Virus record (IMG/VR): IMGVR_UViG_3300007640_000006
Span: 1-62,883 of that record
Reading direction: 5' to 3' (one strand)
DNA from: a virus
DNA: 62,883 nucleotides
A model generated the notes under the pieces. It had not been told where the DNA came from and did no database searches. It saw nothing but the letters and a program-made list of their open reading frames with translations. The position numbers and the translations under genes are program-made. Shown one piece after another: positions 9,640 through 54,935 of the stretch. Numbering within the stretch: the stretch's first letter is position 1; every line of letters begins with the position of its first letter.

Positions 9640-9761
9640 AGTGCGGCGGCATACTCCGCGCCGAACCCAGAATGCCCGGCTTCCCAGCAAACAGTAACGT
9701 GTATCCTGGCGTGTATCCCTAAGCGGTAAAGCCCCCGAAAGGCCCGTGATTGCGGCAAAGC

Positions 9762-9783
9762 GTGAGTCTCCCCCGGGGCACCA
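9762..9783 (+). other. tRNA 3'-end mimic (candidate attP core), not a complete tRNA gene
   Basis: gtgagt|ctccc|ccggggc|a|cca has the exact geometry of T-loop end, 5-nt T-stem, 7-nt acceptor strand, discriminator and CCA. No D-arm or anticodon arm lies upstream. Confidence 0.5.
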
Positions 9784-9829
9784 CGATCAAGATTCTGAGA
9801 TGCTCACAGAACACCAGAAACCCAGGAAA

Positions 9830-9856
9830 GCCGGCTATCTGAGCCGGCTTTTTTGT
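9830..9856 (+). terminator. Rho-independent terminator
   Basis: GCCGGCT-atctg-AGCCGGC perfect 7-bp stem followed by TTTTTTGTTT. Confidence 0.75.
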
Positions 9857-9949
9857 TTCTGGAGATCGCCAAAGGTTCAGTGAAGTTCTTGTATCCCTGT
9901 ATCCCCATATGTATCCTCGTTTCCCCGCGAACTTTGGGATACACAACAG

Positions 9950-21554: not shown

Positions 21555-23525
21555 CTATTGACCAACCGATATCCCTTTACCACGCAGAAGCTCAATCACC
21601 CGCTCTGGACTGATACCCTCGTCTCTGGCGGTCTGCTCAACTTCTGCTCGCGATACCTCACGCCTGGCACCCTGAGTTTGCTGCGAAGCATTAACCGGCT
21701 GACCGGTAGTCACGTCGATAACCTGCTTGCCAACGATCGGTCGTCCCATTTCGTCACGATCAAGAATGACGTCCTGCGTGATATAGCGGTCCTTCGCCTG
21801 GGTCGCCAAGACGTTGTAAGCCTGGCGGGCGACATTACGCTGCTCTTCGCTGATGTTCGTGTCAGAGATCTGCGCGCGCAGTTGCTCGAGGCGCTGGCGA
21901 TCCTGCATGCCCAGGTCACCCTCGGCAATCTGCTGCTGCAGGCGCTGCTGGTTGAGCTGTTCGGTGCCCATTCGCTGGGTCGTGGCGGCACGCTCCACGG
22001 CCGAGTTGGCGGCGCCCTGCTGGGTCTGCTGCCGCTGCCCTTCCGTCTGAGCCTGTCGCGCATCGAGGCGAGCATTCTGCAGGTCGGCCAGGGTTGGCGA
22101 GCGGGAACTGTCGCGCACTACGGTAACCCGACCGCCACCTTCGCCGATTTCGCCACGTCGACTGGCCTGGATCATCTGCGCACGCTCTTGGTTGGCGCGC
22201 TCGAAGCGATCGATGGCCATCTGTGCGTCACCGGGAGCACCTACGGAAAGGCCACCACCAACGCCATCGCCAACACGGTTCATACCGCCAGCAGGCATCG
22301 TCCTGGCACCAGCTGCTGCCGCGTTGTCGTTCGTGAACTCAGGGGTGCCATCGGCACCGGTACGCATGGCGATGCCGTTGCCTGCCTGGGTGTAGCCGTT
22401 TCCGGCTGGCGATACAAACTCTGGTGCATCAGCGCTTGGCGCCGATGCTTCAGGCATCATGGCAGCAGACTCTCGCGCCATAGCCTGGATACGCTCAGGC
22501 GTCATCCCGGTGGTTGCAGTTGGTGCTGGCGAAGCGGCAGGCGCTGCGCCTGCGCCGTCACGCGGCTGCACGCCGAGGGCTTCACGACCAGCAGCACGCA
22601 GACCTTCGGTGGCGCCGCTGATACGATCCAAACCTTGCTGCACGCCGCCGACCGCCTCGTCGCGATATCGCGCTGCACCACCAGGTAGCGTCGACGGGTC
22701 GCCACCAACCGCATATGCAGCTACATTGCGCAGCGCATCCCGGCCAGCAGCGATCGGAACCTGAGCTGCGCCGGCCACGGCCTGACCGATGCCGGCCGGA
22801 ACATCCAGCAGGCCCCGAACTCCCGGCATACCGAGACGCGGCGCGTCCTGTTCAGTAGTCGTCGTGGTGGTGCTTCGCGGCATGCCCAGCCCCGGCTGCT
22901 GAGTGGCAGCAGACTGCTGGCCAGGGCGCGGCATCCCGAAGCCGCCGGCGCGCGGCTCAGCCTGCGCCGGAGTCGCCTGAGCGTTGTTACCCGGTACGCC
23001 GAGGCGTGGCGCATTCTGCTGCGCAAGCGTCGTGGCACCAGGTCTCGGCAGGCCAAGGCCTGGGGTATTGGTGATATCGAACGAGGTCTGGCGCGGATTG
23101 CGCTCATCGTCAACCAACCCACCATCCACGAAGAACTGGCGCGGGCCGTCGGCTTGCTGCCCTTTCGCAGCAGCCATCACCGCCTTGGTGAGCCCGAAGC
23201 CCTTCTGCTGGTGAGTGGCGTTCTTCAGTTGGTCGAGCACCACAGCGCCAAGCGCATGCACGTCCTGGGGCGGCATTTCGTACTCGCCATTACTGACGGC
23301 CACCGGCACCTGCTTGCCAGGCATACCGAGCCGCGGCTGTTCCCTATCCGGCGCACTCTGGCTATTACGCCCAGGCATTCCCAGCCCGAGCTGAGCCGTG
23401 GTGTCGGCCGGCAGGATGTAAGTTCCTTCCGGAACGTCTTTCTTGATCGAATCGGACGTGCCAGTGCCAGGCCCTTCGATCAATCCGCCATTGGCGGCAT
23501 GCTTGCGCTTGGGAAGCCCGTACAT
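21555..23525 (-). CDS. Virion internal/ejection-type protein (656 aa) with seven (P)RLGMPG-like repeats
   Basis: GGGAG RBS. N-terminal GPGTGTSDSIKKDVPEGTYILPADTT. Repeats are LGLGMPG, PRLGMPG, GLGLPRPG, PRLGVPG, GFGMPRPG, PGLGMPR and PRLGMPG. Q-rich coiled coil near the C-terminus. Confidence 0.7.
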   Translation of the reverse strand: MYGLPKRKHAANGGLIEGPGTGTSDSIKKDVPEGTYILPADTTAQLGLGMPGRNSQSAPDREQPRLGMPGKQVPVAVSNGEYEMPPQDVHALGAVVLDQLKNATHQQKGFGLTKAVMAAAKGQQADGPRQFFVDGGLVDDERNPRQTSFDITNTPGLGLPRPGATTLAQQNAPRLGVPGNNAQATPAQAEPRAGGFGMPRPGQQSAATQQPGLGMPRSTTTTTTEQDAPRLGMPGVRGLLDVPAGIGQAVAGAAQVPIAAGRDALRNVAAYAVGGDPSTLPGGAARYRDEAVGGVQQGLDRISGATEGLRAAGREALGVQPRDGAGAAPAASPAPTATTGMTPERIQAMARESAAMMPEASAPSADAPEFVSPAGNGYTQAGNGIAMRTGADGTPEFTNDNAAAAGARTMPAGGMNRVGDGVGGGLSVGAPGDAQMAIDRFERANQERAQMIQASRRGEIGEGGGRVTVVRDSSRSPTLADLQNARLDARQAQTEGQRQQTQQGAANSAVERAATTQRMGTEQLNQQRLQQQIAEGDLGMQDRQRLEQLRAQISDTNISEEQRNVARQAYNVLATQAKDRYITQDVILDRDEMGRPIVGKQVIDVTTGQPVNASQQTQGARREVSRAEVEQTARDEGISPERVIELLRGKGISVGQ

Positions 23526-42302: not shown

Positions 42303-44603
42303 TCAGGCGAGGTTGTCGGTGGTGCTGACAGTCTCGATTCCCTGCATTCCGGTACCAGGCTCAGCAGGTACCGGCGGGAAGGCTGGACTGGTGTTCTCGC
42401 GCACTGGCGGCAAGCTATCAGGGCCACCTGGCTGCACATAAGGCGTCTTGATGTTCATCGCTGCAGTGGCGTCGGCCTGCGGGAAGTTTGGATCGTCGCC
42501 CTGCTGCTGTTCGTAGCCGGCGCCCTTCATGATCTCGTCGGCGACCGGGGCGATCATCGGCATCTGCGCGACCTGGGCAGCCGCTTGCATAGCCGAGTAA
42601 GCGGCCTGCACGCCAATCTGCACGGACTCGCGGCGGATCTTCTCGATCTCGGCGTCTGTCTTGCCCTCCTTCATCGCCAGTTCGCGCATCTTCAGTTCTA
42701 CGCCTGACTTGGCCAAGGCTTCGTCCACCGCCTGCTTGATGCGCTGCTCGACCTGCTCCGGCGATTCCTGCTCGCCAGCGGCGCGAATTGCTTCGACCAC
42801 ATCGCGCTTGAACGGCACATCCATGAGGCTGACCAAGAACGGCAGCACTGCGGCCTGGTACTGAGGCGGCAGGCTCTTGACGGCCTCGGAAAGCGCAGCC
42901 AGCTGCTGCGCGCGATAGCTGTTGGTGCTCGGCACATCCTCCAGAGCTACTTTCAGGCGAGTCCGCTGCAAGTCGTTCGACAGATAGGTGTAGCCGGCCG
43001 GGTCCTGCTCCGGCTTGTTGATCACCACGGTACGATCCTCTCGCACCGCATCGCCCTCGATGATGATCGTCTGCTGCTTCGCGCCGAGATCCTTGATGAT
43101 CATCGACAGGAGCATTTCGCCAACCAGCGTCCGGCCGGCGCGGAAGTTGTCCATCATCACACCCAGCGCCTGGTTGCTCTGCTCGATCTGCATCGCCTCC
43201 TGCCGGCCACTGGTGGCAGTACCTTCCTTGCCCATAAACCCAGTTGTCACCGCCGATACGCGCTGAATCGCGGAGCGGTTGTCCTGCAGCATCTGGAACT
43301 GCTGTTGATTCAGTTGGTAGTCACGATGCACCTGAAAACGAGCGCCAGGGTTGTTTCTGAAGTGATCGGCATTCAGCACGATATCCGCATCCACGCGCGC
43401 CACCTGCTGGCGAAACTGGGCATCGGTCATATCCACGGCGCCCTTGGTGCGCTCGGTGCGTACCGACGCCATACCCCAGCGCAGCTTGCTGATGCCGCTG
43501 TTCAGGCTGTCCTGCGGGTAGATCATGTCGCGCACGTAGCCGAATGGCACTCTGGTACCGTCCTCACGGAAGCCCCAGAACGGAGCATAGGGGTAATGCC
43601 GGTGGGTGTACGGGGTCGGTCCATCGTGCAAGCGGTGCGGGCCAAGCCAATAGCTACGACGCACGCGAGCCACTACGGCACGACTGTAGGTCGACATGCC
43701 GCTGGCAAGCGCCACCTGATGCGCCATGTTGCTCTCGTCGTACTCGACCACACGACCATCGGGCGCGGTGATGACGCCAACCTCAACCCAGCGCCGGTAC
43801 CAGACTTCGGCCAGGCAGATCTCCTTCGAGGTCGGGTTGTACCAGCGTTCCTCTTGCACGGTCCAAGCGCGCGCTTCTGCCCAGGCGTTGTGCAACCCAG
43901 TCGAATCGCCGCCGTCATTTGCAGCGTTTGGCGTGTCCATCCACCACTCGGCACCGTGCTTGCCGATCGCCAGGATCAGTTCCTTGTGCTCGGGGAACAC
44001 GCGAGCGATACGGTCAGGCAGCAGCCAGCGCTGACGACGCAACCAGCGCGCATCGCTCAAGTCCTTCTCGATCGCGGCAAAATCCCAGTGGATTTCGTTA
44101 CGGTGCACCACGCTGCAACGGTAGGGGTACTTGAAAGGGTCGCTCTCGCGCTTCACCTCAACCCATCCAAGGCCGACCGCAATCTGCGGCTGGAATGCAT
44201 CGCTGCAGGCGTCGTCGGCCTTCGCATGCCGCTCAGCCTGGTTGAGCTTGTAGTTCAGCGCATCGGCCACGTCCTGGCCGCCCACTTCGCCATCCGGCGT
44301 CACGCGCCAGTCAGTGCGGGTCGCACTCTCGTAGCCACGGATAGACAGCAGTGCCGGGCCGATCAGGTTCTCGACTGCTGGCGGAATACCCAGCGCACGC
44401 TGCCTGGCCAGCAGCTCGCCATCGAGTTGGTTGCCGTCCGCGTAGTCCATTTCCTTGTCGGCGGTGCCGCGCCACTTCGGCTGTTCCTCGATCTCATGCA
44501 TGATCTCGGTGTACTCGTCGAGCGTCAGCGCGAGCTCGTCTTTCGCCTCTTCGGCCTGCTCGGGGTGCTTGAGTGCGGTAGCGTCCATCTGGTGGTTCCT
44601 CAC
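42303..44603 (-). CDS. Portal protein
   Basis: 766 aa, directly downstream of TerL. GTG 44603 overlaps the TerL TGA. An alternative ATG at 44588 has a GAGGA RBS. Confidence 0.8.
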   Translation of the reverse strand: MRNHQMDATALKHPEQAEEAKDELALTLDEYTEIMHEIEEQPKWRGTADKEMDYADGNQLDGELLARQRALGIPPAVENLIGPALLSIRGYESATRTDWRVTPDGEVGGQDVADALNYKLNQAERHAKADDACSDAFQPQIAVGLGWVEVKRESDPFKYPYRCSVVHRNEIHWDFAAIEKDLSDARWLRRQRWLLPDRIARVFPEHKELILAIGKHGAEWWMDTPNAANDGGDSTGLHNAWAEARAWTVQEERWYNPTSKEICLAEVWYRRWVEVGVITAPDGRVVEYDESNMAHQVALASGMSTYSRAVVARVRRSYWLGPHRLHDGPTPYTHRHYPYAPFWGFREDGTRVPFGYVRDMIYPQDSLNSGISKLRWGMASVRTERTKGAVDMTDAQFRQQVARVDADIVLNADHFRNNPGARFQVHRDYQLNQQQFQMLQDNRSAIQRVSAVTTGFMGKEGTATSGRQEAMQIEQSNQALGVMMDNFRAGRTLVGEMLLSMIIKDLGAKQQTIIIEGDAVREDRTVVINKPEQDPAGYTYLSNDLQRTRLKVALEDVPSTNSYRAQQLAALSEAVKSLPPQYQAAVLPFLVSLMDVPFKRDVVEAIRAAGEQESPEQVEQRIKQAVDEALAKSGVELKMRELAMKEGKTDAEIEKIRRESVQIGVQAAYSAMQAAAQVAQMPMIAPVADEIMKGAGYEQQQGDDPNFPQADATAAMNIKTPYVQPGGPDSLPPVRENTSPAFPPVPAEPGTGMQGIETVSTTDNLA

Positions 44604-46216
44604 GTGCGCCAGTCAGGTGCTGGGGCTTCTGTGTACGACTGCCGGCCCTGGTGTCCGAGCATGTCCAGTTCTTTGGCCTGCGCCCACTGACGAAAGGCGT
44701 CGGCGCCCTCGCTGCAGCCGTTGGCCTTGTTCGGTGCGTTGTCGAGAAAGCGGTTTTCGGAGCGGCTGAACTTCTTGCGGTAGTTGTCCAGGCGGTTGAT
44801 GCCGTCGGCACAGGCCACTTCGTCGATGAAGCAGCCCTTCATGTGCTTGCGGGTCTGCTGGATGCCGGTAATCAGTTCAGTGATGCGCGGCACGATGACG
44901 AACGTGTGCCCGGGCAGCAGATCCTCGAGCATTTCCAACACGCTGCGGTTGTAGTCGCCCAGGCGCTTGTGCGCGGCGTCATGCGGTAGGTAGTGGGTGC
45001 CGTACAGATAGCCGCGGTCCTTCAGTTCCTGCGCGTAGTGGCGCAGATCCTTGCCGTGCTCTTCGTAGTAGTCGACGAATCGATCCTCGCCGCGCAGTTC
45101 CTGCTGGAACCACACAGCGCAGCCGTCGCTGTTGCCGATATCCCAGAAGGTGTTCACCGGCACGTCGAGCACAGGCACGCGAGTGATCCCGCCGCGCTTG
45201 CGCATGGCCTGCATGTCCTCGGCGTAGTAGTTGCCCTCGGTGCTGATCTGGAAGGCTTCATCGGGCGTGCCAGGGTATTCCTGCCACATCCGCTCTTCCT
45301 TGCCGGCGAAGTCGGCCTGCTTGGTGGCCACGTACCAGGCGCGCTGGTCCGGGTCGATCTTGCAGTCCATCAGTGCTTCGAGCTTGTCGAAGTAAGCGTG
45401 CTGGCCGCGATCGACCGGCACCGTGACGCTCGGCAGCCGATAGTTCGGCTCCTGCCACCAGGCGTAGAAGTGGAAGCGGTAATCCTTGGGCGTGAGGGGC
45501 TTCTTGTCCCGGTAGTTCTTCTGGGCGATCTGCACCATGTTGAAGAACTCGCCTTCGCGCCCTTCCGCCGTGCTCTCGATCACCAACACGCCATTGGTTG
45601 GCACGGCCGGTATCGAACCGGTGACCACTTCCTGCGCCTTGTCCGGGTACTTGGCGCAGATTTTCCCGAACTCGGAGACGTGCAGGCGGTGGATGGTGCC
45701 AGAGCGCATCGAGGTCGCCACACGCACAGAACTGTTGTTGTGCGCGAAAAGCAGCTCGACCGCGCTATCCCTGGCCAGCGGAAAGCGCTCACGGATCTCG
45801 TCCGGAAGGTTCTCGTAGGCGAATTTCACCTTGTCGCGGAATATCGTCTCGGCCGCCTCGCGATCCTGAGCGATGATGCCGCAGCGCTGGTTGGCGTTGA
45901 ACAGCGCGTGATCCAGCCACAGGATGGCGATCAGTGTCGTGAAGCCGAGTTGGCGTGCCTTCAGGATCAGGTTGCGATGCCACAGCCGCTTCAGGAACCG
46001 CTTCTGCGCCCGGTTCGGCTTGAACGGCATCACGAACGACTCGCCTTCCTCGACGATGTTGCCGAGCTCGTCGACTTTGTCGTCGCCCTTCACCATGATT
46101 TTGTACAGGCAGCCAGAGAACAGGCGCCATTCAGGGTCAGCCAGGCAGCGCGCCAATTCCTCTGCATTGGTCGGCAGAGGCTGCAGTGGCGTGTCGTGCG
46201 TCACTCGCATGGCCAT
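44600..46216 (-). CDS. terL: Terminase large subunit
   Basis: Walker A-like LILKARQLGFTT and Walker B-like IHRLHVSEF, with a C-terminal nuclease-sized half. GAGGA RBS. Confidence 0.9.
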   Translation of the reverse strand: MAMRVTHDTPLQPLPTNAEELARCLADPEWRLFSGCLYKIMVKGDDKVDELGNIVEEGESFVMPFKPNRAQKRFLKRLWHRNLILKARQLGFTTLIAILWLDHALFNANQRCGIIAQDREAAETIFRDKVKFAYENLPDEIRERFPLARDSAVELLFAHNNSSVRVATSMRSGTIHRLHVSEFGKICAKYPDKAQEVVTGSIPAVPTNGVLVIESTAEGREGEFFNMVQIAQKNYRDKKPLTPKDYRFHFYAWWQEPNYRLPSVTVPVDRGQHAYFDKLEALMDCKIDPDQRAWYVATKQADFAGKEERMWQEYPGTPDEAFQISTEGNYYAEDMQAMRKRGGITRVPVLDVPVNTFWDIGNSDGCAVWFQQELRGEDRFVDYYEEHGKDLRHYAQELKDRGYLYGTHYLPHDAAHKRLGDYNRSVLEMLEDLLPGHTFVIVPRITELITGIQQTRKHMKGCFIDEVACADGINRLDNYRKKFSRSENRFLDNAPNKANGCSEGADAFRQWAQAKELDMLGHQGRQSYTEAPAPDWRT

Positions 46217-46219
46217 AGG

Positions 46220-47068
46220 TCAGTCCTCGCCATGCTCAGGGTCGTGCGCCACTGTCTTGAACCCGTTCGAATTACCGCTGGCGATCGAGTGCAGGAGGCT
46301 GGCCAGCGGGTCGACGCGCTGCTGGTTGTCCTTCTCGTACAGGCCCAGGTGCTTGAACAGCTTCTCCATGGCCGCATCTTTCGAGTGCGTCATGATCTCG
46401 ATGCCGAACTTCGTCTGCTTCACGCCGGCATACAGCGACGCAGCACCAGGCGAAAGCTTGCGGGTGTCCTTCAGCACTACACGCGGGTAGCCGTGTCCAC
46501 CGCATTCCGGGCAACCAGGGAACGGATCACGGTTCGGATCGAAGCCAACGCCGCCGTCTTCTGGGAAATCCTCGGGTTCTTCGCCTTCGTCCACCCACAG
46601 CTTGTACGCATAGTCACGTTCGATCTGGGTGCGCTGGCGCATGTGCCCTTCGCCGTAGCAGTGACGGCAGCACACAACCACCAGCTCGGTCAGCTCGCGA
46701 GCATCGGCCGTGACCTGATTCCACGCCTCGCGCAGCACACGATCAGCAGTGATCTCGGTGCGCTGTTGCTGTTTCAGCCGCGCTTCAGCGATAGCCGCCT
46801 GGATATTAGGTTTCGTTAGGTTCTCGCATCCAACGACTGCAGCCGTCTTCTCGCTGTATCCAGCACGGATCGCTGCCTGCTTGGCGTTCAGGTCGACCAT
46901 GTACTCTTCGACGAATCGAACCTGCAGGGCTGTAAGCGCTACCTCAGCGTTATGCACCTTCACCGTATTGCGAGCACGCGCAGTCGAGCCGGTCGCCTTA
47001 TTCTTGGCTACCGGCTTCTTCACTGGCTTCTTGGGTGCGGGCTTGGCGCCCTTCTCTTTCGTGGTCAT
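46220..47068 (-). CDS. terS: Terminase small subunit (Terminase_2-like)
   Basis: FVEEYMVDLNAKQAAIRAGYSEKTAAVVGCENLTKPNIQAAI fits the HTH of small terminases. Cys pairs CCRHCYG...CPECGGHG lie in the C-terminal half. Confidence 0.85.
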   Translation of the reverse strand: MTTKEKGAKPAPKKPVKKPVAKNKATGSTARARNTVKVHNAEVALTALQVRFVEEYMVDLNAKQAAIRAGYSEKTAAVVGCENLTKPNIQAAIAEARLKQQQRTEITADRVLREAWNQVTADARELTELVVVCCRHCYGEGHMRQRTQIERDYAYKLWVDEGEEPEDFPEDGGVGFDPNRDPFPGCPECGGHGYPRVVLKDTRKLSPGAASLYAGVKQTKFGIEIMTHSKDAAMEKLFKHLGLYEKDNQQRVDPLASLLHSIASGNSNGFKTVAHDPEHGED

Positions 47069-47102
47069 GCCCGGAGTCTTTCCGGGTGATGGCAGGGTGT
47101 CG

Positions 47103-47120
47103 AACCCTACAGGGGGGCGC
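47103..47120 (-). promoter_or_regulatory. Late-operon conserved motif, copy 2 (GCGCCCCCCTGTAGGGTT)
   Basis: Lies between the terminator at 47154-47180 and the terS ATG (34 nt upstream). Confidence 0.55.
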
Positions 47121-47153
47121 AGGCTATGGCTGGCAAGGGTTTGGGCAGAGACA

Positions 47154-47180
47154 AGAAAGCCCGCACTCGGCGGGCTTTCT
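47154..47180 (-). terminator. Intrinsic terminator between the early-right and late genes (potentially bidirectional)
   Basis: AGAAAGCCCGC-loop-GCGGGCTTTCT 11-bp inverted repeat. Minus sense is followed by TGTCTCT and plus sense by CTGCATC. Confidence 0.6.
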
Positions 47181-47193
47181 CTGCATCGGTGGG

Positions 47194-47472
47194 TCAGGCG
47201 CTCGATCGCGCCCAGTGCAGCACCTGGTCATTCGTGCGGTTGAACACCATACCGGCACTGGCGATACGCATGTCGCTGCGCAATGCGGGGCTTTGCTTGC
47301 TCTCCAGGCTGCGAGGCTGCATCACCTCGGCCAGGTTGCGCTTGGCCTCGGCAGCATAGTGCTGGTCAGCGTAGGCCTTGAAGGCCAGGTGGTCGGCGGG
47401 TACCGGCGCAGCGAACACCAGGCCGCTGGACAGATACAGGATCGCGATAACGCACAGCAGGACTTTCTTCAT
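47194..47472 (-). CDS. Small secreted protein (92 aa)
   Basis: Internal ATG 47472. Signal peptide MKKVLLCVIAILYLSSGLVFA|AP. Flanked by motif copy 1 upstream and a terminator downstream. Confidence 0.6.
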   Translation of the reverse strand: MKKVLLCVIAILYLSSGLVFAAPVPADHLAFKAYADQHYAAEAKRNLAEVMQPRSLESKQSPALRSDMRIASAGMVFNRTNDQVLHWARSSA

Positions 47473-47540
47473 CTTCGGACGCCTCGACAGGTTGAGGTAG
47501 TTGGCAGTCCGAGTGTTTCGCTGGCATCCCTGCCAGTTCA

Positions 47541-47558
47541 AACCTTACAGGGGGTCGT
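47541..47558 (-). promoter_or_regulatory. Late-operon conserved motif, copy 1, most divergent (ACGACCCCCTGTAAGGTT)
   Basis: Overlaps the TAA of the upstream gene, 68 nt upstream of the ATG at 47472. Confidence 0.5.
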
Positions 47559-47913
47559 TCGGCGTGAAGGTCACATCGAACTCGCCCATCAGCGGCACCG
47601 CCTGACCGGCAGCCTGGCCATTGCCATACTGCAAATGCCGGCGCTCGGTGCGCTCTTCCGCGCGATCATCACCAGGGAAGTGCTTGGCGTTCATGTGCAT
47701 GTGGTTGCAGATGATGCCGGCCATCAAGCCAAGGGCAGCAGGATCTGCGTCGGGTACCAGGCAGGCAGTGCTCAGACTGCCGCCATCGATCTCGACTGAG
47801 AACAAGGCGACCGGATCATCACCCTGCTCGGATGACTGCAGCGCGTAGTGGACGACCATGGGGGTCATCTTCGCCTGCTGCTGGGTGTCAATTTCTTGGA
47901 TTGGATTGCTCAC
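47545..47913 (-). CDS. Hypothetical protein (122 aa)
   Basis: GTG 47913 with a GGAGG RBS 9 nt upstream. The track start 47973 lacks an RBS. Confidence 0.5.
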   Translation of the reverse strand: MSNPIQEIDTQQQAKMTPMVVHYALQSSEQGDDPVALFSVEIDGGSLSTACLVPDADPAALGLMAGIICNHMHMNAKHFPGDDRAEERTERRHLQYGNGQAAGQAVPLMGEFDVTFTPNDPL

Positions 47914-47984
47914 AGTGATTGCCTCCAGGGCATATTCGTTAAACCTGCACGGGCGATTTGCGCCCCTTCCCACCTAAAACTGAC

Positions 47985-48205
47985 CGTCACGCAAGCGTCA
48001 CAGCCGAAACGTCACATGTGACACCTAAGTGACGCCTTTCTGCGCCGCCTCCAGCTTGCGCTCTCGCCAACGTGCAGTCCGCTTAGCGCCTGGGCTGCGC
48101 TGCTTTTCTTGAGCCGCTACAGGTATGCCTTGCAGTTGCTCATGCGTCACACCAGGCGTCACATGTGTGACGCCTCCAAGCGTCACAACTCCATCCAATG
48201 TGACG
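47985..48205. repeat. CGTCAC/GTGACG hexamer array A: two clusters (4 + 5 copies) including perfect palindromes
   Basis: Copies start at 47985, 47996, 48010 and 48029(inv), then 48145, 48157, 48167(inv), 48181 and 48200(inv). A 12-bp palindrome GTCACATGTGAC lies at 48011-48022. A 20-bp palindrome GGCGTCACATGTGTGACGCC lies at 48155-48174. Confidence 0.85.
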
Positions 48206-48657
48206 CCCTGTAATGCCCCCCCAGCCGCCTTTCCGATAGTCCTTTCGAACCGATTAAGGCGCCCCTGAATCTCCCCGTTGAGCAATGCGGTTTGATGCCC
48301 TACTTCGATACTGGCGGCCTGCATCATTACCCCTGCCTGGATCCTGGCGAGCATGCGATCCTCGGCCGGCGTAAGGATAAGCACCTGATCGCCGATCTCC
48401 AGATTCACCGTTCCGTCCGGCAGCAGCGTCTTGCTCATGGGGCGCGCAGGTGGATGCTGTTCTGCCGGAACGAACACGCCCCTGCCGACCCGGACAATCA
48501 ACATTTCCTCAATGAGCGCCTTCAGCCGATCGTCGATGATCGACAGCTTCAGGCCGGTCAACTCATGCAGCGTTTCACGGGTAACGATCTGCTCCTGCTG
48601 GTGCAGGTCGCGCAGTGCGTCGAGTACGACCTGTGTCGATGATTTCTTCGCTGTCAT
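48025..48657 (-). CDS. Putative winged-helix DNA-binding protein (210 aa)
   Basis: N-terminus VLDALRDLHQQEQIVTRETLHELTGLKLSIIDDRLKALIEEMLIVRVGRGVFVP is wHTH-like. The C-terminus carries GVT/VT repeats imposed by hexamer array A. Confidence 0.55.
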   Translation of the reverse strand: MTAKKSSTQVVLDALRDLHQQEQIVTRETLHELTGLKLSIIDDRLKALIEEMLIVRVGRGVFVPAEQHPPARPMSKTLLPDGTVNLEIGDQVLILTPAEDRMLARIQAGVMMQAASIEVGHQTALLNGEIQGRLNRFERTIGKAAGGALQGVTLDGVVTLGGVTHVTPGVTHEQLQGIPVAAQEKQRSPGAKRTARWRERKLEAAQKGVT

Positions 48658-49106
48658 CGCTCGCTCTCCCCTGTCTCACGAATCAGCCCCTGCTCTCGCA
48701 GGATTCGCCATTGCTCGGCCGGCACTACGCGCTGGTTCTCTTGTGCAAGAGCCTGTTGCGCTTGTCTGGCGGCCAGCGCCTCGTCGACGATCAAGCCGAC
48801 ATGAGAGGCGGATGAAGTCCTGCTGCATGCCATCAGCGCGGCGCGCAGCCGCTTCTCATCCTCTATGCCTCTGATCAGTTGCTCTGCATTCGCTTTGGCC
48901 AACTCTCTGAACTGGTCGCGTTCGCCCTGCAGGACTGCGCACGCCTGGGAACACCGCTCCCAACGGGCATGCCCGTCACGGTGAATAGCGTCAATGCGGT
49001 CGTAGTCGCGGAGCAGCTCCCGCACGTCGTTGATATCGACCGTGACCCTGATCGACTGGCTTTCAGTCGCACCGCGCAGGCGCGTTAGTACATGATGGAA
49101 ACTCAT
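48654..49106 (-). CDS. Hypothetical protein (150 aa), candidate regulator by position
   Basis: ATG 49106 with a GGAGAA RBS, preceded by a 210-nt gap. No recognisable motif. Confidence 0.5.
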   Translation of the reverse strand: MSFHHVLTRLRGATESQSIRVTVDINDVRELLRDYDRIDAIHRDGHARWERCSQACAVLQGERDQFRELAKANAEQLIRGIEDEKRLRAALMACSRTSSASHVGLIVDEALAARQAQQALAQENQRVVPAEQWRILREQGLIRETGESER

Positions 49107-49316
49107 TTCCAATTCTCCACTGGCTCGCGCTCTGCGCTGTTTGCCCACTCGCTGCCGAAGACCTCCATAGGGCCGAAGCACGGCGGTTCGGATTTACTCT
49201 TGAAGCCGGCCAGCCAGTAGTAACCACTGTGCTGGGTGGCGCCGCAGTGGTCGCACTGCTGCTATGCGCCGAAACCTGGGGCGCTCTGGCGCCGGTATAG
49301 GTGCTGCCTCATGCCG

Positions 49317-52787: not shown

Positions 52788-53451
52788 GTGCGGCTCCTTT
52801 CTTGGTCTGGCCAAGGCGTTTGGATTCGCTGATCAATTCCCCGACCGACTTGCCCGCGCGAGTGATGGCCAGCCGGCCACCAGCGCCCTTCTGCAGCACA
52901 GCCAGGCATGCTTTGCGATCGCCGATCAGCAGCGGATCTGGCGCCTTGAAACGCCCGCCGCTCTCGGCCTCGGAAATCCCGATCAAGTGTTTCGGGTAGT
53001 CATCACCCACCCCGCCAGCGATCACGAAAGCCCGGTACCGCCGCGCAAACTCCAGCCCCTGGAACTTGTAATCTTCCTCAGAATTCGCGGTGCAGAGCTT
53101 CACCCAGCCCCCCATGTCATCCAGCACGCGATGCACAATCGGGTCATCGAACACCACGGACTGATACGGCCCAACGCGACGCACAGTCTTGTCGACTCGA
53201 CTCCATGCCAGCATTCCCTGGTCCTGGCTGGTACCGTCGATCAGCCGCACCACATCGGCCGGCTTCGGCGCAAACTGGCCGCTGTCCGGGTTCTGCACAT
53301 GGGCGTTCAGCCCTCGGCGCACCGACTCAATGTCGTAACCCGCCAGAGCATCGAAGAACACGTCGACGAAACCGGTGGTGATCTGCTTGCTGTAAACGCT
53401 CATGACCTTGGCGAGCATCGCGGCCAGCGCTACCTTGTCTTCAGCTTTCAC
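52777..53451 (-). CDS. Lambda-P-like replication protein (candidate helicase loader)
   Basis: The GTG start overlaps the upstream gene end. VRRGLNAHVQNPDSGQFAPKPADVVRLI resembles the lambda P segment ...RRQNRPFLPSPGQFVAWC. Weak, from memory. Confidence 0.45.
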   Translation of the reverse strand: MKAEDKVALAAMLAKVMSVYSKQITTGFVDVFFDALAGYDIESVRRGLNAHVQNPDSGQFAPKPADVVRLIDGTSQDQGMLAWSRVDKTVRRVGPYQSVVFDDPIVHRVLDDMGGWVKLCTANSEEDYKFQGLEFARRYRAFVIAGGVGDDYPKHLIGISEAESGGRFKAPDPLLIGDRKACLAVLQKGAGGRLAITRAGKSVGELISESKRLGQTKKGAAHET

Positions 53452-54454
53452 GGACGTAGTCCCCTTCGATTACCGGGTCGTCTTCTCGCAGGAAATCCTG
53501 CACACCACCGCCGCCTTGCTGCCTCTGCAGTTGACGAACCACCTCGTTGTTCGCGTCTTCGAGCTGCTGCTGCCGGTTCATCGACCCGCCGCGGCGCGCC
53601 TGTTTCTCCAGCAAATCGGCCTGAGCTTTCCGCATCCAGCGCTGCCAGGTCGCAGTCCAGTCGGCCATTGGCTTGCCGTTGCCTTTCCAGTAGTCGAGGA
53701 ACTGTTCCAGCTCCCAATCCAGATTCACGTCGGGCACCTTCTCCCTGGCCCACTCCAGCATTGCCGTGGTCATCAGGAACGGCAGCGGCAGCGGCTTCTT
53801 CGGCTTGGCGCGTGCGCCTTTCGATTCAGCCGTCGCAGCCGGATTCTTCGCCGGCTGTCCCTGTGACGGGTCACCAGGGGGGCTAAAGGGGGTATTACTC
53901 TTGTCTTCTCTAGTCTTATCTGGTGTGACTTCGGCGTGACTCTCGTCGCGCGTCACGTCGCCACCGTCGCGCGTCACGCTGTCGTCACGCTCATTTTGTG
54001 ACGACTGTTGCGCTGCTTTTTTGCGAGCCCGATACGCTGCACTCCGCGCAGCACTAGAGCTCTGTCGCCTTCCAGTCGAGTCACGGAGCAGCGGCTGCCG
54101 CTCGTCCCAACTGGCCAACCTGCCGCCAACGATCAACCCGCGATCAGTCAGCGCAGCGACAACAGCAGCTGTCTTTCCGTCGCCAAAACCGAGCAAAACA
54201 TCGTGATCGTCACAGTCAAAACTGGTCACGTCACCGCGCGACACTCGAACCGTTTCCGTCACGCCTTCGTCACGCCCGTCACGCTCTGCGTCACGCACCG
54301 TCACGCTCACGTCACACTCAGGAACCGCACTCGCGCACTCAAGCAGGCATGCCCACACCGCCAGCACTTCGCCAACGGAAGCACCTGACATGCGCGCAAC
54401 GCGCTGAAACTTCGGGTCAGTAACTGTCCCGTGCCACCACCGGAGCCAATCCAT
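53441..54454 (-). CDS. Replication initiator / replisome-organiser-like protein carrying internal iterons
   Basis: N-terminus MDWLRWWHGTVTDPKFQRVARMSGASVGEVLAVWACLLECAS fits the replisome-organiser N-terminal pattern. C-terminus has LEQFLDYWKGNGKPMADWTATWQRWMRKA. About 15 CGTCAC copies lie inside the gene. Confidence 0.6.
   Translation of the reverse strand: MDWLRWWHGTVTDPKFQRVARMSGASVGEVLAVWACLLECASAVPECDVSVTVRDAERDGRDEGVTETVRVSRGDVTSFDCDDHDVLLGFGDGKTAAVVAALTDRGLIVGGRLASWDERQPLLRDSTGRRQSSSAARSAAYRARKKAAQQSSQNERDDSVTRDGGDVTRDESHAEVTPDKTREDKSNTPFSPPGDPSQGQPAKNPAATAESKGARAKPKKPLPLPFLMTTAMLEWAREKVPDVNLDWELEQFLDYWKGNGKPMADWTATWQRWMRKAQADLLEKQARRGGSMNRQQQLEDANNEVVRQLQRQQGGGGVQDFLREDDPVIEGDYVRES
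53925..54315. repeat. CGTCAC(G) hexamer array B (candidate replication origin iterons)
   Basis: Copies lie at 53925(inv), 53936(inv), 53951, 53972, 53983, 53998(inv), 54208, 54225 and 54229. A phased run follows at 54257, 54268, 54277, 54289, 54299 and 54310 (spacing 9-12 bp). Confidence 0.8.
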
Positions 54455-54456
54455 CG

Positions 54457-54651
54457 TTAATGCGAAGCCTCGGCAGCTAGGAACTCGGTAACGATCTGCG
54501 TCACCGCCTGTTCGGTTGTGATGCCCTTGCTGCGCGCGTAGTGCTCAAGCCGAGTGCGCTGGATAGCGGACATTTCGGCGAGGTAGCACGCGCTTTCTTC
54601 AGCAATCTGCTGTGGTTGCGGCTGCCCAAACTCTTGGCTGCTCATGCTCAC
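54457..54651 (-). CDS. Small protein (64 aa) with a CopG/RHH-like C-terminus (cII position)
   Basis: RTRLEHYARSKGITTEQAVTQIVTEFL resembles RHH helix pairs. The start is coupled to the cro-like stop. Confidence 0.5.
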   Translation of the reverse strand: MSMSSQEFGQPQPQQIAEESACYLAEMSAIQRTRLEHYARSKGITTEQAVTQIVTEFLAAEASH

Positions 54652-54851
54652 GCAACCTGAAAAATGTCTGGGCGTAGATCAAAGGCTGAGACGGCGCCGC
54701 CGCACGCATCGACAACCGCGCGAACCCTGTGAGCGGGAACGCCACGTGTTTTCCACTGGGTAATTGCCATGGGTGTCACGCCAACCTTTTCGGCCAGCGC
54801 CTTGGCTGACCCAACCGCCTCGATAGCGGTTTCAAGAGGTGTCTTTTTCAT
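54648..54851 (-). CDS. cro: Cro-like HTH regulator (YdaS/Cro family-like, 67 aa)
   Basis: ATG 54851. LETAIEAVGSAKALAEKVGVTPMAITQWKTRGVPAHRV is HTH. Divergent from cI. Confidence 0.7.
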   Translation of the reverse strand: MKKTPLETAIEAVGSAKALAEKVGVTPMAITQWKTRGVPAHRVRAVVDACGGAVSAFDLRPDIFQVA

Positions 54852-54935
54852 AAACGGATCGCCAGCTCTCTCATAAACACAAATCAACGATACGTTTATT
54901 TATGTATTTGCACAAGCGGCGTAAACTCTTTGTTT
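54852..54935. promoter_or_regulatory. Divergent cI/cro control region with TAAAC/GTTTA operator half-sites
   Basis: ATAAAC at 54850 and 54873, GTTTAT at 54894 and 54932. A 15-bp palindrome TAAACTCTTTGTTTA at 54922-54936 overlaps the cI ATG. The -10-like TAAACT lies 11 nt before the cI ATG, so the cI mRNA would be near-leaderless. Confidence 0.6.

Follow-up and report, generated by a model that had tools for sequence, protein, structure and literature searches.

The pac site of phage P1 lies within the gene for the small terminase subunit and is read by the terminase. In phage lambda, the iterons of the O protein lie inside the O gene itself (ori-lambda), and phage P4 has in crr a second, bipartite cluster of initiator-type repeats, several kilobases away from ori. 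Plasmid centromeres, such as R1 parC and the omega heptads of pSM19035, are composed of 7-11-bp repeats to which a small protein binds cooperatively and which are often arranged in two parts around a promoter. The gp38 protein of phage SPP1 has two binding loci, oriL within gene 38 and, in the late region, oriR; stalling at the latter has been proposed to trigger concatemer synthesis (PMC6316719, PMC3485210). SPP1 oriR is thought to act as a barrier of bound protein more than as a start site (PMC6316719).

Here, we have analyzed an array of short repeats at the boundary between early and late genes in a 62,883-base stretch of DNA (the window), which represents the whole genome of a phage of the F116-like (Hollowayvirus-like) temperate Pseudomonas phages and whose nearest cellular copies are found in Ectopseudomonas mendocina and E. 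khazarica. Our preferred explanation, to which we give a probability of roughly 45%, is that the array and a basic helix encoded between its two clusters form a self-contained initiator-type cassette, which would tether a putative late activator at the early/late junction.

Each of the systems above resembles this locus in part. Two hexamer clusters around a spacer of approximately 100 bp are also the layout of P1 pac; unlike that site, which is inside the small-terminase gene and terminase-read, the window array is uncoupled from the terminase. The likeness to lambda O and ori-lambda is that the putative sites of a protein fall within its own coding region, where this encodes a linker and is selected as DNA. 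The 337-aa replication initiator of the window phage follows this lambda plan itself, whereas the gene that carries the array encodes a winged-helix protein of another family and not an initiator; moreover, the reader proposed here is a basic helix at the C-terminus, encoded between the clusters, and the array lacks an AT-rich tract. SPP1 shares with the window two separated loci with the same kind of repeat, one in the initiator gene and one in the late/packaging region. However, the initiator gp38 binds oriR, which also contains an AT-rich unwinding element, whereas arrays of the window type persist with unrelated initiators and their core can differ from that of the origin. In P4, the second bipartite cluster of initiator-type repeats is likewise kilobases away from the origin; P4 replication depends on crr in cis, where the alpha protein binds, whereas the comparative data presented here oppose a dependence on the initiator.

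The array and its genomic setting

All genes considered here are on the minus strand. Starting from a cro-like gene (54648-54887), the order runs through the 337-aa replication initiator (53441-54454), a DUF6475 protein, NinB, NinG and a 175-aa ORF to the 210-aa winged-helix protein (48025-48657), the penultimate gene of the early-right operon, which is followed by a conserved 122-aa ORF (47545-47913), TerS (46220-47068) and TerL (44600-46216). The 210-aa protein is a long form of phrog_8117, matching this family only over residues 3-141. Searches of Pfam and NCBIfam gave no match for the 210-aa protein, the initiator or their neighbors, and none was obtained in a PDB sequence profile search.

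The array occupies positions 47985-48205 and comprises nine CGTCAC/GTGACG hexamers and ten GTSAC cores. Cluster 1 (47985-48034), which takes up the first half of the gap before the 122-aa gene, contains four hexamers (starts 47985+, 47996+, 48010+ and 48029-) and one additional GTGAC core, the tenth of the array, at 48018. Cluster 2 (48145-48205) is inside the coding sequence and contains five (T)GTGACG(C) sites in both orientations (starts 48145+, 48157+, 48167-, 48181+ and 48200-). The sites are approximately 11-12 bp apart, with T-GTGACG-C as the 8-bp unit, and six of the eight genomic copies of the array 8-mer TGTGACGC are located in the array. A first-pass annotation of this DNA had listed nine hexamers, with cluster 1 straddling the stop codon of the 210-aa gene, a VT-rich C-terminal tail encoded by the array, and terS about 0.9 kb downstream. 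All nine hexamers were found at their places, the stop codon (48025-48027) is inside cluster 1, the next gene starts at 47913 and terS at 47068, and the tail is as described. Its two perfect palindromes fared differently: GTCACATGTGAC (48011-48022, cluster 1), whose right half is the core at 48018, is indeed a perfect 12-bp palindrome, whereas the supposed 20-bp palindrome GGCGTCACATGTGTGACGCC in cluster 2 (48155-48174) consists of two inverted 9-bp arms around an asymmetric 2-nt center (GGCGTCACA-TG-TGTGACGCC).

The same annotation had judged the density of hexamers to be far above chance, and a genome-wide k-mer analysis agrees with it. All 2,080 canonical hexamers were scanned across the whole genome in 225-bp windows under a Poisson model, and the most clustered hexamer was GTCACA (8 of its 25 copies in the array, Poisson 9e-14), followed by CGTCAC (61 copies in the genome, nine of them within 221 bp, Poisson 2.5e-12); both remain below 1e-5 after approximately 6e5 implicit tests. 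The array is not the only place where CGTCAC is clustered, as 13 copies are also present at 53863-54310.

Another conserved element, the late box CCCTGTAGGGTTCGA, occurs in seven copies on the minus strand of the window's late region (20937, 23577, 31577, 37608, 42264, 47100 and 47538), a number that was reached in none of 100 shuffles. The first copy (CCCTGTAAGGTTTGA, 47538-47552, minus strand) is 430 bp downstream of the array, and the second (47100-47114) is just before terS. Besides these two late boxes, the interval from the array to terS holds the 122-aa gene, a gene for a small secreted protein, and a terminator. The core of the box (CCTGTAGGGTT) was also detected downstream of phrog_8117 homologs in 21 fetched loci from several genera (including Pseudacidovorax, Methylotenera, Aquabacterium and Azomonas), usually approximately 45 bp before terS and irrespective of the terminase type. 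Judged only from gene position and co-occurrence with the late box, the phrog_8117 winged-helix protein is probably a late-gene activator, and the late box is another plausible target of this winged-helix family.

The start codon of the 122-aa gene, the first gene after cluster 1, is a GTG at 47913, 9 nt after GGAGG. A sigma-70 consensus scan of 47000-49300 gave no match, a result that speaks neither for nor against a promoter just after cluster 1. The 70 bp between cluster 1 and the start of the 122-aa gene (47914-47984, minus strand) are nearly invariant among relatives and contain a degenerate late-box-like sequence, CCCGTGCAGGTTTAA, approximately 35-50 nt before the GTG.

Conservation of the sites and variation of the protein tail

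The bipartite array is kept in five IMG/VR relatives whose 210-aa proteins are 81-95% identical to that of the window. Invariant alignment columns make up 46/50 of the site cores and 34/57 of the positions between sites (Fisher p = 1e-4), and all 25 core columns of cluster 1 are invariant in four relatives. In L008, some sites have moved and flipped their orientation, with the number of sites unchanged. In homologs of 55-75% identity, the tails differ, yet VT and RDAS, which are GTGACG translated in two reading frames, remain abundant in them.

In the AF2 model of the 210-aa protein, a winged helix (residues 7-64) is followed by a small beta unit (74-95), a long helix (97-151), a linker and a C-terminal helix (189-208), the last of which has block pLDDT values of 88 and 79, whereas residues 149-183 have pLDDT below 50 and are predicted to be disordered. 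The VT-rich linker (residues 145-183; 48109-48225, minus strand) results from translation of cluster 2 together with the adjoining DNA. The inter-cluster spacer of approximately 110 bp encodes the basic helix SPGAKRTARWRERKLEAAQKG (residues 184-206; 48040-48108, minus strand), the candidate site reader. Among five genes with the W-type helix described below, pN/pS was 0.16 in the basic helix and 0.22 in the folded domain but 0.67 in the linker; by these values, the linker is free or only weakly constrained as protein, whereas the helix is under purifying selection. The invariance of the cores, the turnover and flips of sites and the pN/pS of the linker show that the sites are selected at the DNA level, as the first-pass annotation had proposed. 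The CGTCAC words are real, conserved sites, and the binding of a protein to them is predicted.

Among approximately 130 fetched phrog_8117 homologs, the majority are short forms (140-180 residues), at whose loci no array was found at the stop codon, save in one lineage with a different repeat. Arrays are present at fourteen long-form loci, and further IMG/VR scans yielded no additional long-form variants. Every site is GTGACG in the window and in L004-L010, L015, L017, L066, L070 and L206, and every site is GTAACGC (8-9 per array) in L011, L012, L013, L067 and L204. Only the C-terminal tail of the 210-aa protein travels with the array: in the Pseudomonas clade, no array was found without the tail, and no gene exclusive to the GTAAC group was found within 10 kb on either side of the array. 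A protein search with the tail alone returned only two proteins, and a fold search with the 210-aa protein gave only generic winged-helix matches, none at E <=0.001.

The tail helix and the sites vary together in four classes, a covariation that is drawn from only about five independent lineages. The helix ARWRERK (W) is found with T-GTGAC-GC sites at six loci, RAYRxRKK (Y) with C-GTGAC-G in L009, L017, L070 and L206, RKHRRLKK (H) with T-GTAAC-GC in L011, L012 and L067, and RAFRARK (F) with C-GTAAC-GC in L013 and L204. There are two exceptions, namely L010 (Y helix with T-GTGAC) and L205 (mixed array), and a one-residue recognition code was rejected on account of these two loci and of the Rep homologs in L163 and L164. 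The C-terminal basic helix encoded between the clusters is nonetheless the best candidate for the reader of the sites.

Two unusual arrays may be described separately. In L205 (1300-1680), a 1.7-kb assembly contig, cluster 2 consists of GTGACG and cluster 1 of GTAACG, with a Y-type helix between them; this mixed array could be either a recombinant cassette or an assembly chimera. In L086 (2540-2640), and also in L089 and L093, five or six (C)CGTTAACA(C) repeats with a spacing of approximately 11 bp follow a short-form homolog; the repeats begin with the stop codon of that gene and lie on both sides of the late box that immediately precedes terS. As this lineage has a GTTAACA array and a short-form homolog lacking the basic tail helix, arrays can exist without the helix.

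Origin iterons and the helix of the initiator

The 13 hexamers at 53863-54310 are origin-type iterons inside the gene of the 337-aa initiator, where two clusters of (C)GTGACG(G) contain 18 GTSAC cores, with an AT/purine-rich tract beside them at 53880-53930. The array and the origin share the GTGACG core and a repeat phasing of approximately 11-12 bp, and their flanks differ (T-GTGACG-C in the array, C-GTGACG-g at the origin); the array 8-mer TGTGACGC was not found among the origin sites of the window. In the phages L019 and L148, which have homologous initiators, the origin iterons are TGTGACGC and the palindrome CGTCACATGTGACG, both of which are words of the array. Since the cores are alike, cross-binding between the initiator and the array is likely in the window phage. 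Scans for DnaA-box and IHF consensus sequences came back empty in the array and the origin alike.

Between its two iteron clusters, the initiator gene encodes the basic helix SSSAARSAAYRARKKAAQQ (residues 132-150; 54005-54061, minus strand), the counterpart of the tail helix; the AF2 model of the initiator places a helix at residues 133-157, flanked by low-confidence segments encoded by the iterons. Helices of the Rep337 family have the pattern S-x-A-A/E-R-x-x-A-Y/W-R-x-R-K-K. When their profile was compared with that of the tail helix, hhalign gave a probability of 97.9% (E 5e-13), a value to be treated with caution since it comes from a single comparison of short basic segments; the match shows the tail helix to be kin to the Rep-family helix. 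The shared arrangement is one in which repeat clusters, translated as disordered linker, flank a basic helix of the form A-x-R-x-x-A-(Y/W)-R-x-R-K-K. BLASTP between the 210-aa protein and the initiator detected no similarity, and their relation is thus confined to the short helix. Similarly, blastn of the tail cassettes against Rep genes gave only matches of iteron length, and the cassette is therefore not a recent duplication.

The initiator genes of this group are mosaic. A comparison of the window gene (53441-54454) with those of L004, L007 and L008 revealed a common C-terminal half (residues 189-337, 56-80% identity) and unrelated N-terminal DNA-binding halves of the Rep337 or DUF1376 type, each with its own in-gene repeats, and the join is located upstream of a common element, CCCCCTTTAGCCCCCC...GGTGACC(C/A)GTCACAGGGAC. 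In phage F116 (L001), seven to ten GTCGGAAAAAT-type repeats are present at 1238-1500 over F116p31, in the interval that separates the early genes from the repressor region; they are probably the origin iterons of F116.

Possible roles of the array

The mechanism that we prefer may be set out as follows. Two clusters of 8-bp sites around approximately 110 bp encoding a short basic helix would have been fused, as a cassette, to the 3' end of a phrog_8117 winged-helix gene. Translation through cluster 2 would yield a floppy VT-rich linker that is unimportant as protein, followed by the helix, with the stop codon in cluster 1. The sites would be read by the tail helix and not by the winged helix, so that several copies of the protein could be held on the DNA at the junction of the early and late operons, 0.43 kb upstream of the first late box. 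The outcome might be a local store or loading platform for the late activator, and/or a roadblock feeding back on the protein's own and downstream transcription. We infer both the binding of the sites by the helix and its consequences from comparative evidence. Across the loci compared, the array proved to be independent of the terminase, of the type of initiator and of the winged-helix domain, and the switch of motif is uncoupled from the winged helix, the TerS domain, the initiator and origin, and all other local genes. On the other side, a lone basic helix that reads 8 bp would be unusual. The helix may instead be a general DNA clamp and not a specificity element, because the helix is kept in members of the Rep337 family (L163 and L164) whose iterons differ. 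In addition, the rule relating the helix to the T or C flank is broken by L010, the array of L205 is mixed, and L086 has an array without the helix.

Sites inside the gene of their own binder are already known from lambda O and SPP1 gene 38. What appears to be new here is the presence of such a module on a non-initiator gene, a putative reader that is a short helix between the clusters, and a natural retargeting by one base. A broader idea, which we consider doubtful, is that a portable, self-referential DNA-binding module has passed from initiator genes to a late regulator, where it would serve either to time late transcription, as an enhancer-like tether, or to mimic iterons and act as a decoy interfering with the origins of competing Rep337-type phages; in phages of this type, the iteron at the origin is exactly TGTGACGC. 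Should the tail helix indeed be the reader of the sites, the G-to-A change accompanied by W/Y-to-H/F would provide a minimal, naturally re-targeted pair of helix and site, useful for studying how DNA is read by a single basic helix, as well as a case in which a binding module takes its own sites along as it moves from gene to gene. The locus also links a replication-type DNA element physically to a probable late-gene switch, so that one can test in F116-like phages whether replication and late transcription are coupled.

An alternative that we regard as unlikely is that the array is an auxiliary locus bound by the 337-aa initiator, comparable to SPP1 oriR or P4 crr. Such a locus might be a second origin, a site of copy control or handcuffing, or a fork barrier; in the last case, it would lie just ahead of the packaging genes and help replication to change from the circle-to-circle to the concatemer mode. 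The GTGACG core shared with the 13 origin hexamers, the use of TGTGACGC and CGTCACATGTGACG as real origin iterons by close Rep337 homologs (L019 and L148), the homology between the cassette helix and the Rep helix, and the bipartite layout, which is also that of the origin, are all consistent with this idea. SPP1 also offers a precedent (PMC6316719, PMC3485210), and by analogy oriL and oriR are the nearest one for such binding. However, the array does not travel with an initiator. In L004 and L006-L009, it is kept beside an initiator whose N-terminal half is DUF1376-like and whose iterons are different, with CGTCAC unclustered at the origin, and in L011 and L012 the arrays are GTAAC and the origins of GTGAC type. 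Conversely, the phages with the closest Rep337 genes have either no winged-helix gene or only its short form, without the long-form tail. Within the window, the array 8-mer is absent from every origin site, and a scan of GC content in 40-bp windows found no AT-rich unwinding tract in the array (spacer 62% GC; minimum 0.47 in the array vs 0.42 at the origin).

It is also rather improbable, in our estimate, that the protein binding the sites acts in trans and is encoded at another place in the phage genome or by the host, with the tail helix serving as a non-specific clamp or in another role. The mixed array of L205, the array without a helix in L086 and the conserved helix of Rep-family members with differing iterons would all suit an unlinked factor, and the comparison spanned approximately 10 kb on either side of the array, with several relatives being short contigs. 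This idea is opposed by the lack of any GTAAC-exclusive gene within that distance, by the constant company of array and tail in the Pseudomonas clade, and by helix variants that track the site variants in four classes.

The first-pass annotation had offered two readings of its own. According to one of them, the array consists of operator or activator sites for the adjacent winged-helix protein, controlling entry into the late region. The sites overlap the end of a gene for a DNA-binding protein and continue beyond it, where early and late genes meet, and palindromic pairs would suit a dimer. Nevertheless, reading by the winged-helix domain seems to us quite improbable, since one and the same winged helix occurs with two motifs: the protein of L012 (P0009) is identical to the window protein (P0001) over residues 1-90, with few conservative changes to approximately residue 135, and yet its array is GTAACGC, so that the winged helix cannot set the specificity. 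Most family members have no array, and the element found together with the family is another conserved box, that of the late promoters; the sites thus neither covary with the domain nor occur throughout the family. What survives of the reading is the protein itself, whose C-terminal basic helix is a candidate reader, and control of late-region entry by the array is possible.

The other reading, a P1-like pac site at which headful packaging starts, is contradicted by the comparison of terminases and is now very hard to sustain. The two hexamer clusters around approximately 110 bp and the position upstream of terS had made it attractive, and the phage group does package by headful (PMC5217972). 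However, the array is constant across a Terminase_2 TerS with one type of TerL, as in the window, and an Sf6-type TerS with a Terminase_3 TerL, as in the array carriers L005-7, L013, L015, L017 and L066. In addition, the motif changes while the TerS DNA-binding domain remains the same: one type of domain is common to L009 (GTGAC) and L012 (GTAAC), and the Sf6-type domain is identical in L013 (GTAAC) and in L005-7 and L066 (GTGAC). The array is neither within nor directly beside terS, the two being 0.9 kb apart with a terminator, both late boxes and the 122-aa gene in between. For phiC725A, an F116-like phage, packaging was taken to start where the maximum of read coverage begins, near 23,500 (PMC5217972), a position that the F116 gene map places inside terS, approximately 0.85 kb past the homologous winged-helix gene. 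A tempting pac assignment is thereby removed for generalized-transducing Pseudomonas phages, and such phages of this group are being engineered as delivery capsids (PMC12708760). The double dissociation of site and protein module used here may serve as a comparative rule for candidate pac sites and operators in general.

The notion that the repeats act as RNA, with inverted copies pairing at the 3' end of the mRNA and controlling its stability or translation, has almost nothing left to commend it: the 271-nt transcript is predicted to fold at -123.7 kcal/mol (z = -4.85 vs shuffles), but site orientation is not conserved (it flips in L008), the copies in L011 and L012 are all direct, with the pairing lost and the motif count kept, and no compensatory changes preserving long-range pairing were seen across the relatives, and the RNA-structure reading was rejected on the first of these grounds. 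A partition centromere, which would resemble the array in having short repeats in direct and inverted orientation, was rejected as well, since no partition ATPase signature was found in the phage genome (a scan for the deviant Walker-A motif in ORFs of >100 codons, which was a motif scan only, gave none); the repeats of the array are also not contiguous.

The canonical hexamer scan also placed GATACA among the most clustered hexamers of the genome. It belongs to a group of five TGTATCC repeats and one inverted copy at positions 9700-9940 of the window, which lie on both sides of a strong hairpin of terminator type (GCCGGCT-atctga-AGCCGGC, then a run of T); these repeats could be arm-type recombinase sites or operators.
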